DNA of 64,000 nt, from the NCBI RefSeq assembly GCF_003334335.1, contig NZ_QOWQ01000017.1. One strand, given 5' to 3'. The notes beneath the pieces were generated by a model that was not told the DNA's origin, did not search any database, and saw nothing but the letters and a program-made list of their open reading frames with translations. The position numbers and the translations under genes were made by a program. Source of the DNA: Escherichia coli. GTDB taxonomy: Bacteria > Pseudomonadota > Gammaproteobacteria > Enterobacterales > Enterobacteriaceae. Below, in pieces: positions 11,895 through 38,526 of the stretch. The stretch's first letter is position 1; each line of letters opens with the position of its first letter.

Positions 11895-12848
11895 GTGGAT
11901 AGTAATAATCAAATTGAACCCTGTTTAAGCAGAAAGTCGTCAGAAGGTAAACCACAAATATTTACAACCTTACGAAATATTGATCTTAACCTTCTGACTA
12001 TTTTTGAAGCTGTATATGTACATAAAGGGATCGTTAATGCAGCGAAAGTGCTTAATCTGCCCCCCTCGGCAATCAGTCAGTCTATTCAGAAACTGCGCGT
12101 TATATTCCCTGACCCATTGTTTATTCGCAAAGGCCAGGGTGTCACTCCTACCGCATTTGCGATGCATCTACATGAGTATATCAGTCAGGGCCTTGAGTCC
12201 ATTCTTGGCGCGCTGGATATCGAAGGAAGCTATGATAAGCAACGAACGATAACTATTGCGACCACTCCCTCGGTCGGAGCACTGGTCCTTCCTGTCATCT
12301 ATCGGGCGATTAAAACTCACTATCCGCAGCTTTTACTGCGCAACCCGCCCATCAGCGACGCGGAAAACCAACTCAGTCAGTTTCAAACCGATCTCATCAT
12401 CGATAACATGTTTTGCACCAATCGTACGGTGCAACATCATGTTCTGTTCACCGACAATATGGTGTTAATTTGCCGCGAGGGAAATCCACTACTCTCTTTA
12501 GAAGATGACAGAGAGACTATCGACAACGCTGCGCATGTACTTCTGTTACCGGAAGAGCAAAATTTCAGCGGTCTGCGGCAGAGAGTTCAAGAAATGTTTC
12601 CGGACCGGCAAATCAATTTCACCAGCTACAACATTTTGACAATCGCTGCACTGGTTGCCAACAGTGACATGTTAGCGATTATTCCCAGCCGTTTTTATAA
12701 CCTGTTTAGCCGCTGCTGGCCGCTGGAAAAACTGCCTTTTCCGTCCTTAAATGAGGAGCAAATAGATTTCTCTATCCACTACAACAAATTCAGCCTGCGT
12801 GATCCCATCCTGCACGGAGTAATAGATGTTATCCGTAATGCATTTTGA
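11895..12848 (+). CDS. ybeF: LysR-family transcriptional regulator YbeF
   Basis: 317-aa ORF, GTG start, N-terminal HTH (LNLLTIFEAVYVHKGIVNAAKVLNLPPSAISQSIQKLR). Confidence 0.88.
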   Translation: MDSNNQIEPCLSRKSSEGKPQIFTTLRNIDLNLLTIFEAVYVHKGIVNAAKVLNLPPSAISQSIQKLRVIFPDPLFIRKGQGVTPTAFAMHLHEYISQGLESILGALDIEGSYDKQRTITIATTPSVGALVLPVIYRAIKTHYPQLLLRNPPISDAENQLSQFQTDLIIDNMFCTNRTVQHHVLFTDNMVLICREGNPLLSLEDDRETIDNAAHVLLLPEEQNFSGLRQRVQEMFPDRQINFTSYNILTIAALVANSDMLAIIPSRFYNLFSRCWPLEKLPFPSLNEEQIDFSIHYNKFSLRDPILHGVIDVIRNAF

Positions 12849-34328: not shown

Positions 34329-34699
34329 CTATACTTCCTCCGTGTTTTCGATGAGATGTAAGGTAACCAATTTTTGCCGATTCGGCTAATGCGTTTCCAT
34401 TATCAAATCGATAAGTTTTACCTTACAACCTTCGTAAGACAACTTTGTGAACTTTGCACCGCCAGCGGCGATAAAAAGTAAAATGGCCCCCTTTCCAGGT
34501 GACCGTGTAATCTGAACTACCCTTTGGTATCTTCAGTGCCTGCCTGCAGGCTGAGGTGTTGCCCTTACAAATGCAACAACGACATGGATTACAACACCCT
34601 CATAAACAAAGGGCAATCACCTGATCTAAGCTCTTACCTATGACAGTGATAGGTTATGCCTTTTACTCGACTTTTGCACTGACTGAAAAGGACAAATTA

Positions 34700-35446
34700 A
34701 TGTTAAAAAAGATACTTTTACTGGCTCTGCTTCCTGCAATCGCCTTCGCAGAGGAACTTCCTGCTCCAGTAAAAGCGATTGAAAAACAGGGCATTACAAT
34801 CATCAAAACATTCGATGCCCCCGGAGGAATGAAAGGTTATCTCGGAAAGTATCAGGATATGGGCGTCACCATCTACCTGACTCCAGATGGTAAGCACGCT
34901 ATCTCTGGTTACATGTACAACGAGAAAGGTGAAAACCTGAGTAACACACTTATCGAAAAAGAAATTTACGCACCAGCCGGACGCGAAATGTGGCAACGGA
35001 TGGAACAATCCCACTGGCTCCTCGACGGTAAAAAAGATGCGCCGGTCATTGTCTACGTCTTCGCCGATCCGTTCTGCCCATATTGTAAACAGTTCTGGCA
35101 GCAGGCGCGCCCGTGGGTAGATTCTGGCAAAGTGCAATTAAGAACATTGTTGGTTGGGGTTATCAAGCCAGAAAGCCCGGCGACAGCAGCGGCAATTCTT
35201 GCCTCCAAAGATCCCGCAAAAACCTGGCAACAATATGAAGCCTCTGGTGGCAAGCTTAAGCTAAACGTGCCTGCAAACGTAAGTACAGAGCAAATGAAAG
35301 TGTTAAGTGACAATGAGAAACTGATGGACGATCTGGGGGCAAATGTCACGCCGGCTATCTATTACATGAGTAAGGAAAATACGCTACAACAGGCCGTGGG
35401 GTTGCCCGATCAGAAAACGCTTAATATCATTATGGGGAATAAATAA
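34700..35446 (+). CDS. dsbG: Periplasmic thiol:disulfide isomerase DsbG
   Basis: ORF 34640..35446; ATG at 34700 gives 248 aa with signal peptide [17 protein letters not shown] and CPYC active site. Confidence 0.9.
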
Positions 35447-35654
35447 AAGGTAATTCATGGATGGTTGAACTATATCCCTGCTTTTCAACCATCCTAAAAA
35501 AGCATGAATTGCTCGCTCTGCCCTAAGTGGCTGTGCTATTTTAGAAAAACTTAATCCTGAGTTAAGCAAAAAAACATAATCAATAAAAATATATACGCAA
35601 AAAACATTGATTAAGTGAATATATCATGGAAGAAAAATATAACCGGAGTAGTGT

Positions 35655-36557
35655 ATGGCCAATCTCTACGACTTGAAAAAGTTCGACTTAAATCTTCTTG
35701 TCATATTTGAGTGTATTTACCAGCATTTAAGCATTAGCAAAGCTGCTGAATCACTATATATCACCCCATCAGCCGTGAGCCAGTCGTTACAACGCTTACG
35801 TGCGCAATTTAATGACCCTTTATTCATTCGCTCAGGAAAAGGTATCGCGCCGACGACAACAGGGTTAAATCTGCATCACCATCTTGAGAAAAATCTCAGA
35901 GGCCTTGAACAAACAATTAATATAGTCAATAAGTCCGAACTAAAGAAAAACTTTATTATCTACGGCCCTCAGCTCATTTCTTGCTCTAATAATAGTATGC
36001 TGATCCGCTGCCTACGGCAAGATTCCTCTGTCGAGATTGAGTGCCATGATATCCTCATGTCAGCAGAGAATGCTGAAGAACTGTTGGTTCACCGCAAAGC
36101 CGATCTGGTGATCACCCAAATGCCAGTGATCAGCCGTTCCGTCATTTGCATGCCATTGCATACGATTCGCAATACTCTAATTTGTAGTAATAGGCATCCA
36201 CGAATTACTGACAATAGCACTTATGAACAAATTATGGCAGAAGAGTTCACCCAATTAATATCTAAATCAGCAGGGGTTGATGATATTCAAATGGAAATAG
36301 ACGAGAGATTTATGAATCGCAAAATCTCATTTCGTGGTTCCTCTTTGCTGACAATCATTAATAGCATTGCAGTTACAGATTTACTGGGAATAGTCCCCTA
36401 TGAACTTTATAATTTCTACCGTGACTTTCTTAACTTAAAAGAGATAAAACTAGAACATCCGTTACCTTCAATAAAGCTTTACATTTCCTATAATAAATCT
36501 TCTTTAAATAATTTGGTGTTCTCCCGATTTATTGACCGTCTAAATGAGAGTTTTTGA
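35655..36557 (+). CDS. ybdO: LysR-family transcriptional regulator YbdO
   Basis: 300-aa ORF with N-terminal HTH; AT-rich, low-GC coding sequence. Confidence 0.88.
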   Translation: MANLYDLKKFDLNLLVIFECIYQHLSISKAAESLYITPSAVSQSLQRLRAQFNDPLFIRSGKGIAPTTTGLNLHHHLEKNLRGLEQTINIVNKSELKKNFIIYGPQLISCSNNSMLIRCLRQDSSVEIECHDILMSAENAEELLVHRKADLVITQMPVISRSVICMPLHTIRNTLICSNRHPRITDNSTYEQIMAEEFTQLISKSAGVDDIQMEIDERFMNRKISFRGSSLLTIINSIAVTDLLGIVPYELYNFYRDFLNLKEIKLEHPLPSIKLYISYNKSSLNNLVFSRFIDRLNESF

Positions 36558-36703
36558 TATATAACTACAGACAGCTACTATAACTTTCATCTATTTATTC
36601 ACAGCGCGAATGAAAAATAAAACACTCTGCTTTACAGTGTTTACTTTATAATTAACAGACTTATCTCACTGATCACCCTGTAACGTTCAGAGAGCGTCTT
36701 CAG

Positions 36704-37924
36704 ATGTCTATTTATAAAATTCCTCTTCCGCTCAATATTCTGGAAGCTGCACGAGAGCGTATTACCTGGACACTCAACACCCTACCCCGCGTTTGTGTCT
36801 CATTTTCTGGCGGCAAAGACTCTGGTTTAATGCTGCATCTGACAGCCGAACTTGCCCGACAAATGGGCAAAAAAATCTGCGTTTTGTTTATCGACTGGGA
36901 GGCGCAATTCTCTTGCACCATTAACTATGTTCAGTCCCTGCGCGAGTTGTACACCGATGTCATCGAAGAGTTTTACTGGGTTGCGCTCCCGCTTACGACG
37001 CAAAATTCCCTTTCACAATACCAACCCGAATGGCAGTGCTGGGAACCTGATGTCGAATGGGTACGTCAACCTCCCCAAGATGCGATAACCGACCCTGACT
37101 TTTTCTCCTTTTACCAGCCAGGCATGACCTTCGAACAATTTGTACGTGAGTTTGCCGAATGGTTTTCACAAAAACGTCCGGCGGCGATGATGATCGGCAT
37201 CCGTGCGGATGAGTCCTACAACCGTTTTGTCGCCATCGCCAGTTTAAATAAACAACGTTTTGCCGACGATAAACCCTGGACTACGGCCGCACCAGGCGGT
37301 CATAGCTGGTACATTTACCCCATTTACGACTGGAAAGTGGCTGATATCTGGACCTGGTATGCAAATCATCAAAGTCTCTGCAACCCACTGTATAACCTAA
37401 TGTATCAGGCAGGCGTTCCTCTGCGTCATATGCGAATTTGCGAACCTTTTGGCCCGGAGCAACGACAAGGATTATGGCTCTATCACGTTATCGAACCGGA
37501 TCGCTGGGCTGCTATGTGCGCACGAGTCAGCGGGGTAAAAAGTGGCGGCATTTACGCCGGACATGACAATCATTTCTATGGGCATCGGAAAATCCTCAAG
37601 CCAGAACATTTAGACTGGCAAGAATATGCATTATTGCTGCTCAATAGCATGCCGGAAAAAACAGCTGAGCATTACCGCAATAAAATCGCCATTTATTTGC
37701 ACTGGTATCAGAAAAAAGGCATCGAGGTTCCACAAACCCAGCAAGGGGACATTGGCGCGAAAGATATCCCCTCCTGGCGGCGGATATGCAAAGTTTTACT
37801 CAATAACGATTACTGGTGTCGGGCATTATCATTTAGCCCCACAAAATCGAAGAACTATCAGCGTTATAACGAACGGATAAAAGGAAAACGTCAGGAATGG
37901 GGGATACTATGCAACAACGATTAA
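36704..37924 (+). CDS. ybdN: PAPS-reductase-like PP-loop protein (IbrA-like)
   Basis: 406-aa ORF; SGGKDS PP-loop motif at residues 35-40. Confidence 0.88.
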   Translation: MSIYKIPLPLNILEAARERITWTLNTLPRVCVSFSGGKDSGLMLHLTAELARQMGKKICVLFIDWEAQFSCTINYVQSLRELYTDVIEEFYWVALPLTTQNSLSQYQPEWQCWEPDVEWVRQPPQDAITDPDFFSFYQPGMTFEQFVREFAEWFSQKRPAAMMIGIRADESYNRFVAIASLNKQRFADDKPWTTAAPGGHSWYIYPIYDWKVADIWTWYANHQSLCNPLYNLMYQAGVPLRHMRICEPFGPEQRQGLWLYHVIEPDRWAAMCARVSGVKSGGIYAGHDNHFYGHRKILKPEHLDWQEYALLLLNSMPEKTAEHYRNKIAIYLHWYQKKGIEVPQTQQGDIGAKDIPSWRRICKVLLNNDYWCRALSFSPTKSKNYQRYNERIKGKRQEWGILCNND

Positions 37925-38526
37925 CGCAGGATTTAACGCAATTTCTCGCCAGCTTGCCGGAAGATGATCGCATCAAAGCGATTAATGAAATCCGCATGGC
38001 GATCCATCAGGTTAGCCCCTTTCGTGAAGAGCCAGTGGATTGCGTTCTGTGGGTTAAAAACAGCCAACTTATGCCTAATGATTACAACCCAAACAACGTG
38101 GCACCACCCGAAAAAAAACTGCTGCAAAAATCCATTGAAATAGATGGTTTTACCCAACCCATTGTGGTCACACATACGGATAAAAATGCCATGGAAATCG
38201 TGGATGGTTTTCACCGCCATGAAATTGGTAAAGGCTCATCATCATTAAAATTACGCTTAAAAGGTTATTTGCCGGTGACCTGTCTGGAAGGTACGCGTAA
38301 TCAACGCATCGCCGCGACTATTCGTCATAATCGCGCTCGTGGACGCCATCAAATCACCGCCATGTCGGAAATCGTCCGTGAACTTAGCCAGTTGGGATGG
38401 GACGATAATAAAATTGGCAAAGAGCTGGGAATGGACAGCGACGAAGTGCTGCGCCTGAAGCAAATTAACGGCCTGCAAGAGTTGTTTGCCGACCGTCAAT
38501 ATTCCCGCGCCTGGACGGTTAAATAG
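37897..38526 (+). CDS. ybdM: ParB/Srx-like nuclease-domain protein (IbrB-like)
   Basis: 209-aa ORF overlapping ybdN by 28 nt; ParB-like motifs LLQKSIEIDGFTQPIVV and IVDGFHRHE. Confidence 0.88.
   Translation: MGDTMQQRLTQDLTQFLASLPEDDRIKAINEIRMAIHQVSPFREEPVDCVLWVKNSQLMPNDYNPNNVAPPEKKLLQKSIEIDGFTQPIVVTHTDKNAMEIVDGFHRHEIGKGSSSLKLRLKGYLPVTCLEGTRNQRIAATIRHNRARGRHQITAMSEIVRELSQLGWDDNKIGKELGMDSDEVLRLKQINGLQELFADRQYSRAWTVK

Follow-up and report, generated by a model that had tools for sequence, protein, structure and literature searches.

What is encoded by the genes ybdO, ybdN and ybdM of Escherichia coli, and what does the conserved pair ybdNM act on? The three genes lie at positions 35,655 to 38,526 of a stretch of 64,000 nt from contig NZ_QOWQ01000017.1 (assembly GCF_003334335.1), which was analysed as a whole and is called the window below. 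An initial annotation, made from the letters alone, had placed three open reading frames (ORFs), an SGGKDS PP-loop in YbdN and a 28 nt overlap between ybdN and ybdM, and had read two ParB/Srx-like motifs in YbdM (LLQKSIEIDGFTQPIVV and IVDGFHRHE). The ORFs, the loop and the overlap were all recovered at these coordinates, and both motifs were present in the translation. The earlier observation is thus real and was accurately described, while its interpretation was supported in part. The regulator YbdO is already explained by published work on CitR; the enzyme pair is the part that calls for an explanation. The reading we tentatively favour, as one that may be right, is that ybdNM encodes a two-subunit machine, derived from mobile elements, that is directed at DNA, adenylylates with the help of ATP and would change how DNA is read.

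YbdN matched the Pfam families PAPS_reduct (1.2e-13) and DUF3440 (5e-23). The AlphaFold2 model (predicted local distance difference test, pLDDT, 90.2; predicted template modelling score, pTM, 0.86) showed a PP-loop fold of the PAPS-reductase family, as had been claimed from the loop motif. The SGGxDS loop lies on a Rossmann-like alpha/beta fold, which places YbdN in the PP-loop ATP pyrophosphatase superfamily. In an alignment of 58 family members, G37, K38 and S40 of the loop were invariant, and S35, G36 and D39 were conserved in at least 94%. Outside the loop, D64, E66, W113, W119, R167, S171, D214 and Y230 were invariant or nearly so, and a family-specific insert carried the invariant residues W110, W113 and W119. 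There was no conserved cysteine column in this alignment; the best column was 83% Cys and is Ala in E. coli.

The PAPS-reductase-family domain was the sole part of the YbdN model that aligned to solved structures. In the structure comparison, this N-terminal domain was most similar to two adenylyltransferases, FAD synthase and CysD; the tRNA PP-loop enzymes were further from it than these two and CysH. For DUF3440, no relative was detectable by structure or profile comparison. Searches of solved structures with the single sequences of YbdN and YbdM gave marginal matches only. Profile searches confirmed CysD/FAD synthase for YbdN and Noc/ParB for YbdM, and nothing closer was found.

Because the PP-loop site is intact and no cysteine is conserved, YbdN was classed with the adenylyl-transferase type. 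From its sequence, it is predicted to be an intact PP-loop ATP pyrophosphatase of this type, with a PAPS-reductase-family domain joined to DUF3440, and would be neither a thiol-dependent reductase nor an Fe-S sulfurtransferase. On this reading, the chemistry of the pair would not be sulfur or redox chemistry.

YbdM matched Pfam ParB_N (3e-4) and PHROG 2159 (4e-69). In its model (pLDDT 89.5), a helical hairpin at the N-terminus was followed by a ParB/Srx domain and a helix-turn-helix (HTH) of three helices, and the alpha/beta fold together with the GxxR box assigns it to the ParB/Srx superfamily. Among 63 homologs, 23 columns were invariant, including an NxYNPN box, DGFHR, an RHNRARGxH box and residues of the HTH, and all three ParB N-domain boxes were recognisable. 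The DGFHR box, the counterpart of the GERR box in alignments with Noc and ParB, has invariant D103, G104 and R107, and H106 is more than 90% conserved. In the TIRHNRARGRH motif, which falls in helix 134–148 and the following loop of the model, R143, N145, R146, A147, G149 and H151 were invariant. The ParB part of the former ParB/Srx label was borne out by the model. The likeness to sulfiredoxin is one of fold only, since the position of the catalytic Cys in the sulfiredoxin GCHR motif is taken by Phe105 (the column is 78% Phe).

Across phyla, the identity to the E. coli protein was ~48% for YbdM and ~32% for YbdN, and the HTH of YbdM was nearly invariant. YbdM also matched the ParB domain at the N-terminus of phage DNA methyltransferases (PHROG 498; PADLOC MTase_II, sub-threshold). 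In a proteomic study, YbdM was 29-fold more abundant in cells carrying the plasmid pUUH239.2 and was called 'completely uncharacterized' (PMC8764527). Over-expression of YbdM cost 10% of the growth rate, and deletion of ybdM alone gave a fitness gain of 1–2% (PMC8764527).

Databases name YbdM 'IbrB-like' and YbdN either 'IbrA family prophage gene co-activator' or 'phosphoadenosine phosphosulfate reductase'. A protein with PAPS_reduct and DUF3440 directly upstream of an IbrB-like ParB/HTH protein is the arrangement of the IbrA/IbrB family, and the pair also matched PHROG 2302, 15645 and 2159. A second pair with ~58–60% protein identity was found in E. coli and in other enterobacteria. Both the names and the second pair uphold the earlier claim of paralogy to ibrA/ibrB.

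Outside E. coli, the two genes were almost always found together. We scanned one genome per species (79 loci). In 76 of 78 loci, the next gene after the IbrA-like one was ParB-like, and in most cases the two overlapped or were less than 20 nt apart. The intergenic distances were mostly –28 to +15 nt, and the exact –28 overlap recurred in ten other Enterobacteriaceae loci. The loci belonged to Proteobacteria, Bacteroidota, Firmicutes, Verrucomicrobia, Lentisphaerae and a metagenome-assembled genome labelled Candidatus Prometheoarchaeum. A homolog was present in 224 GenBank phage records, and the pair was kept in 70 of 75 evaluable IMG/VR viral contigs. The suspected coupling of the two genes is hence a property of the family. 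The nearest non-enterobacterial relatives were viral contigs (identity of 45–55% for YbdN and 53–58% for YbdM). The identities of the two partners to the E. coli proteins correlated across loci (r = 0.88); as this may merely reflect shared phylogeny, it was not used as evidence of interaction. Among five long homologs, there was no natural IbrA-IbrB fusion.

Some mobile elements carried other versions of the pair. A long form of IbrB (~380–400 aa, with a C-terminal extension of ~170 aa) was located upstream of IbrA, i.e. in reversed order, in ~19 viral contigs (L121–L153) and in L027:5860-7032. Among the relatives examined, this form was the closest to E. coli YbdM outside Enterobacteriaceae (53–58%), and it had the same N-terminal helical hairpin. 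Besides its module of the IbrAB type, Fusobacterium phage phiFN37 (L008, 10748-12033) had a second ParB-like gene directly upstream of genes for a queuine tRNA-ribosyltransferase (DpdA-like) and a queuosine-precursor transporter, so that two distinct ParB-plus-enzyme pairs lie inside 5 kb. The proteins of Arthrobacter phage Laroye (L003, 226-8295) and Mycobacterium phage Pipefish (L007, 1-5341) matched only the first ~250–265 residues of YbdN. These actinophage versions lay between ParB-like genes and directly upstream of terminase genes, and Laroye had a methyltransferase there in addition.

Outside the enterobacteria, an additional partner of the pair was often a small SNF2-type ATPase (~390–480 aa; PHROG 62; Pfam SNF2-rel 1e-10) or, in Bacteroidota, a protein of 136 aa. 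The SNF2 gene was directly upstream in 17 of 61 non-enterobacterial loci and adjacent or nearby in four of the seven phages that were examined; of 71 viral contigs, 15 had it at a distance of no more than 2.5 kb. Its Walker A motif, DES box and motif VI were conserved. An ATPase of this type beside many relatives supports a DNA-directed role, and in this respect the earlier proposal of a role in nucleic acid processes has gained ground. In 22 Bacteroidota loci, the gene directly before the IbrA-like one encoded the 136-aa protein in place of SNF2; this protein had no Pfam, PHROG or NCBIfam match. In a Chitinophaga locus (L082) it was encoded between the SNF2 gene and the IbrA-like gene, and in three viral contigs (L154, L157 and L158) the 136-aa domain was fused to the C-terminus of SNF2. 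We consider it a probable fourth component of the module. No homolog of SNF2 or of the 136-aa protein was found in the 64-kb window. Apart from these two, PHROG 16123 (4 loci) and the LysR gene of enterobacteria, the remaining neighbours were unrelated housekeeping genes.

In E. coli, ybdNM stands under its own regulator. The initial annotation had described YbdO as a LysR-type regulator of unknown role. The LysR type was correct, and the role was already known: YbdO is CitR, the published repressor of ybdNM (PMC9068703). It scored 467 bits against the NCBIfam equivalog NF047710 (CitR; cut-off 400), and its gene is located upstream of ybdNM. A LysR gene preceded the pair in eight Enterobacteriaceae loci and was confined to this family among the loci scanned. 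Rodionova et al. 2022 reported a CitR peak upstream of citR-ybdNM by chromatin immunoprecipitation with exonuclease digestion (ChIP-exo), and RNA-seq of a citR deletion with log2 changes of +5.5 for ybdN and +2.5 for ybdM (PMC9068703). CitR (YbdO) was thereby shown to hold the ybdNM operon almost silent. In the same deletion, the cys regulon (cysDNC, cysJI and cysAWU; log2 +2 to +2.8) and the flagellar regulon were also up (PMC9068703, Table 1), and citR itself was reported to be under H-NS control (PMC9068703). A paralog of YbdO, presumably YbeF, was found in the window at 11895-12848, 23 kb upstream (30% identity by tblastn).

Within E. coli, the operon is part of the core genome. The ybdNM locus was present in 5421 of 5426 complete genomes. 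Both genes were under strong purifying selection, with ratios of nonsynonymous to synonymous divergence (dN/dS) of 0.039 for ybdN (dS 0.27) and 0.060 for ybdM (dS 0.10). Strain ET120 had an ISKpn26-associated deletion from inside ybdO to entF; since it has lost the locus, ybdNM is dispensable. Other disruptions in the region were an IS1 insertion in LAU-OXA and insertions of ISApl1 and IS1B in CFS3292.

Two deeply diverged allele classes were found at window positions 35240-36840, covering ybdO with the intergenic region on either side of it and ~130 nt at the start of ybdN. The second class was carried by about one third of the complete genomes. Between the classes, ybdO had 80% nucleotide and 89% protein identity (dS 1.96, dN/dS 0.033), and the flanking genes of the diverged segment had a dS of 0.10–0.27. 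The dsbG-ybdO and ybdO-ybdN intergenic regions were 74.5% and 69% identical. The divergent ybdO class looks like an ancient or imported allele under purifying selection, not like decay.

Paralogs of the ibrAB type were present in 2142 of 5426 E. coli genomes (39%), some of them on plasmids, and a Citrobacter copy was located on a conjugative element. Nine contexts of such paralogs were examined (L088-L092 and L173-L176). All nine were on plasmids or in accessory chromosomal regions, with insertion sequence (IS) elements near most of them. Four of the nine followed chaperone-usher fimbrial operons with FaeA/PapI (and PapB) regulators, and a PerC-family regulator was directly downstream in four. 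A recurrent cassette (4/9) consisted of a hypothetical protein (214 aa), IbrA, IbrB, the PerC-family regulator and hypothetical proteins. In island L173, genes for a TerB-domain protein, an ATPase and a helicase were located beside the ibrAB cassette. In E. coli ECOR-9, the eib genes of prophages are activated by IbrA/IbrB, according to Sandt, Hopper & Hill 2002 (cited through PMC6008420 and PMC7649339).

The closest known system is IbrA/IbrB of ECOR-9. It has the same order of a PAPS_reduct + DUF3440 gene followed by an overlapping ParB-like + HTH gene, with the identity given above for related enterobacterial pairs. The difference is in the setting: ybdNM is a core chromosomal operon that has a fixed position and a LysR repressor of its own, whereas the ibrAB-type copies are accessory, are found in IS-rich islands or on plasmids, and adjoin PerC/PapI-type regulators with no LysR gene. 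CysD and the PAPS domain of eukaryotic-type FAD synthase resemble YbdN in their intact PP-loop and in being independent of cysteine; these enzymes adenylylate an oxyanion. Their substrates are small molecules, and they lack the ParB partner, DUF3440, the SNF2 neighbour and the W110/W113/W119 insert found with YbdN or its relatives. DpdA/DpdB of 7-deazaguanine DNA modification and the phage ParB-domain DNA methyltransferases are likewise carried by mobile elements and combine an enzyme that modifies DNA with a ParB-like partner or domain. There, the catalytic partner is a transglycosylase or a methyltransferase, in contrast to the PP-loop ATP pyrophosphatase of ybdNM. Among the modules that combine a PP-loop protein with a ParB/Srx protein, ybdNM is best filed as a distinct variant and not under Dnd, BREX or sulfate assimilation.

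The proposal of a DNA-directed adenylylating machine was inferred from the obligate pairing, the Cys-free ATP pyrophosphatase site, the ParB/Srx + HTH partner, the linkage to SNF2, the carriage by mobile elements, the domestication under selection and the repression by CitR. YbdN and YbdM would form a complex, which YbdM would set on DNA while binding a nucleotide. YbdN would then spend ATP to adenylylate an oxygen on the bound target, with release of pyrophosphate. Chemical precedents for such a step are CysD acting on sulfate, FAD synthase acting on FMN and the tRNA PP-loop enzymes acting on a base. The target would most likely be DNA, and the mark or intermediate would alter how this DNA is read. 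In enterobacterial islands, silenced AT-rich acquired genes would be switched on, comparable to the published effect of ibrAB on eib. In phages, often with the adjacent SNF2 translocase, the phage genome would be marked or remodelled. The enterobacteria would have inherited the pair from mobile elements.

A wider form of this proposal is more doubtful. IbrA/IbrB, with the optional SNF2 ATPase and the 136-aa accessory domain, might constitute an unrecognised class of enzymatic DNA marking by cysteine-independent ATP adenylylation, which would be neither methylation, phosphorothioation nor deazaguanine insertion. It would have been spread by phages and plasmids across Bacteria and into archaeal mobile elements, and domesticated in Enterobacteriaceae and Listeria as a silent core operon and an epigenetic switch for acquired genes.

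Several points weigh against a DNA-directed machine. Our literature search found no biochemical study of any family member, and thereby no demonstration of a substrate, a product, a complex or DNA binding. The link to DNA is indirect, since the SNF2 gene is absent near most loci, including that of E. coli. The nearly invariant HTH of YbdM is unusual for a sequence-specific DNA binder, and RNA, a protein partner or the DNA backbone fits equally. ParB/Srx folds include the small-molecule kinases SbnI and SerK, and the enzymes that are structurally nearest to YbdN have small-molecule substrates. DUF3440 gives no guide to its role, as it has no detectable relative. Finally, the idea of DNA modification also leans on the analogy with DndB/DndC, the membership tests of which fail.

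The main rival explanation, which we consider rather unlikely to be correct, is a non-covalent counter-silencer. YbdM/IbrB would be a nucleotide-switched, ParB-type binder like VirB or KorB that remodels H-NS-bound AT-rich DNA and activates transcription. The part of YbdN/IbrA would be an accessory one, namely to produce, edit or sense the ligand nucleotide or to load its partner, and DNA would not be modified. Such a role would agree with the H-NS regulation reported for citR (PMC9068703), with the location of ibrAB paralogs in cassettes with PerC-family and FaeA/PapI regulators near fimbrial and autotransporter genes, and with the three ParB N-domain boxes being recognisable and invariant. 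The activation of eib, the sole published phenotype as far as the citing papers relate it, is an activator-type phenotype as in KorB, VirB and Noc. YbdM differs from these proteins and from ParB in that Phe stands in place of the Glu of the GERR box, the protein (209 aa) stops after the HTH in the model, with no C-terminal dimerisation domain, and an enzyme is its obligate partner; no loading site for a CTP clamp was found. Moreover, its HTH is nearly invariant although the DNA targets would differ by host. An intact PP-loop under strong purifying selection, with both genes retained, is not expected of a purely structural accessory. Phages of Firmicutes and Bacteroidota carry the module as well, and these two groups are not known to have H-NS. 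A near-invariant YbdM surface would also suit a universally conserved target, such as an RNA. Here, the pair would adenylylate and modify this RNA (e.g. a base in the tRNA anticodon loop, compare TilS, TtcA, TtuA and MnmA). The effect would be a change in how acquired genes or phage genes are decoded, or else the repair or protection of tRNA in infection. The eib phenotype leaves room for this, being cited as enhanced Eib expression (PMC6008420, PMC7649339). We regard RNA modification as clearly unlikely: the SNF2 partners are translocases of double-stranded DNA, the ParB + HTH architecture is typical of DNA binders, the tRNA enzymes are less similar to the N-terminal domain of YbdN than CysD, FAD synthase and CysH are, and Pfam detected no THUMP, PUA or other RNA-binding domain in YbdN or YbdM.

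DNA sulfur modification of the phosphorothioation type, or a defence system akin to DndBC, SspD or the BrxP of BREX type 4, was judged very unlikely. The DGFHR box of YbdM may resemble the DGQHR signature of DndB; NCBIfam gave no match of a DGQHR domain to YbdM. A ParB/Srx-superfamily gene beside a PAPS-reductase-family PP-loop gene recalls DndB with DndC, as DndB is described as a ParB-superfamily protein (PMC12839542), and the cys regulon was up alongside ybdN in the citR deletion (PMC9068703). The search of PADLOC-DB v2 gave no significant component match and just three sub-threshold hits, among them DndC (21.8 bits, 2e-5) and BrxP (18.5 bits, 1e-4, over 70 residues only). The NCBIfam DndC model TIGR03183 scored 22 bits, far below its cut-off of 290. 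In contrast to DndC, BrxP and SspD, which carry characteristic Cys motifs or clusters (PMC12839542), YbdN has no conserved cysteine or Fe-S motif, and it has DUF3440 and often an SNF2 neighbour. None of the loci examined had dndA, dndD, dndE, Ssp partner, cysteine desulfurase, restriction or Brx/PglZ genes beside it, and in the window the pair is flanked by ybdO and ybdL. The module belongs to the core genome of the species, and phages themselves carry it too. Hence, the suggestion of a defence module was not sustained, and nothing found in the analysis supports the nuclease role suggested with it. A toxin-antitoxin pair, as guessed by association for lmo1309/lmo1310 of Listeria by TASmania (PMC7020466), appears most improbable. 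The two small, overlapping genes, frequent on mobile elements, and the growth cost of YbdM over-expression (PMC8764527) would be compatible with it. Both proteins are, however, much more conserved across phyla than usual for such pairs, neither matches a known toxin or antitoxin family, the pair is often in a three-gene unit with the SNF2 ATPase, and the effect of deleting ybdM alone was a gain in fitness and not toxicity (PMC8764527). Equally far-fetched is a role in sulfur metabolism or thiol repair, with YbdN being what its annotation says, either a genuine PAPS reductase or an auxiliary metabolic gene (AMG) of viruses for organosulfur compounds, or with YbdM as a sulfiredoxin acting on the neighbouring AhpC. 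It is suggested by the reductase product name, by a viral CysH clade with DUF3440 that was counted as a sulfur AMG (bioRxiv 2021.01.05.425418) and by ahpCF and dsbG directly upstream in the window. The NCBIfam CysH models gave only 25–35 bits for YbdN against cut-offs of 154–254 (TIGR02057, 34.8 vs 254; PRK02090, 34 vs 154), no conserved Cys could serve as the CysH nucleophile, Phe105 occupies the sulfiredoxin Cys position, the synteny with ahpCF/dsbG is confined to Enterobacteriaceae, and the obligate partner of YbdN is of a DNA-binding type.

The features of the locus are listed in Table 1. According to the ORFs and the annotation of matching genomes, the gene order in the window was ahpF, ahpC, dsbG, ybdO, ybdN, ybdM, ybdL, ybdH, ybdD and cstA. 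If an in-frame ATG at 37909 were the true start of ybdM, the overlap with ybdN would shrink to 16 nt.

Table 1. Coordinates of genes, domains and motifs of the ybdO-ybdN-ybdM locus in the window
Feature	Position	Strand	Details
dsbG-ybdO intergenic region, citR promoter/operator	35447..35654	+	32% GC; reported CitR ChIP-exo peak
ybdO = citR, LysR-type repressor of ybdNM	35655..36557	+	300 aa
ybdO-ybdN intergenic region, presumed ybdNM promoter	36558..36703	+	34% GC
ybdN, IbrA-type PP-loop enzyme	36704..37924	+	406 aa
PAPS-reductase-family nucleotide-binding domain, residues 30-234 of YbdN	36791..37405	+	Pfam
PP-loop SGGKDS, residues 35-40 of YbdN	36806..36823	+	seen in sequence
DUF3440 helical domain, residues 237-384 of YbdN	37412..37855	+	
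ybdM, IbrB-type ParB/Srx + HTH protein	37897..38526	+	209 aa
ybdN/ybdM overlap, 28 nt	37897..37924	+	read directly from sequence
DGFHR motif, residues 103-107 of YbdM, GxxR nucleotide-binding box of ParB/Srx fold	38203..38217	+	
TIRHNRARGRH motif, residues 141-151 of YbdM	38317..38349	+	family alignment
C-terminal helix-turn-helix, residues 153-196 of YbdM	38353..38484	+	

All three genes had been described as AT-rich. This held true for ybdO (38.5% GC, i.e. guanine plus cytosine) and for the two intergenic regions flanking it (32–34%), compared with 51.8% for the whole window. It held only weakly for ybdN (47.6%) and ybdM (46.8%), which were just 4–5 points under the window mean and near dsbG (46.9%). 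An Rfam scan found no RNA element inside the ybdO-ybdN-ybdM locus. Its only hit, to the enterobacterial small RNA STnc70, lay between ahpC and dsbG at 34473-34566 on the minus strand (42.7 bits vs a gathering threshold of 40, E 2.9e-6). Promoter and terminator scans of the locus were not above the shuffled expectation. An imperfect inverted repeat at 36609-36653, in the ybdO-ybdN intergenic region, was considered as an operator or loading site; it was absent from the second E. coli allele and from other genera. Because the other allele does not retain the repeat, we do not propose it as an operator or loading site. The ybdO-ybdN intergenic sequence as a whole was not conserved between genera.

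The pair ybdNM is among the few deeply conserved core gene pairs of E. coli K-12 that have clear enzymatic signatures and a substrate still to be found. The module has many carriers among phages, both temperate and lytic, as well as plasmids and pathogenicity islands, and in pathogenic E. coli it is located beside virulence regulators and adhesin operons. The comparison provides experimental handles in the invariant residues, the SNF2 partner and derepression via citR. Knowing the function would explain the effect of IbrAB on immunoglobulin-binding adhesins. It would also fix the widespread mis-annotation as 'PAPS reductase', including viral copies that are counted as sulfur-metabolism genes. 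If true, the idea of DNA marking would add new chemistry to the known DNA modifications and epigenetic switches.

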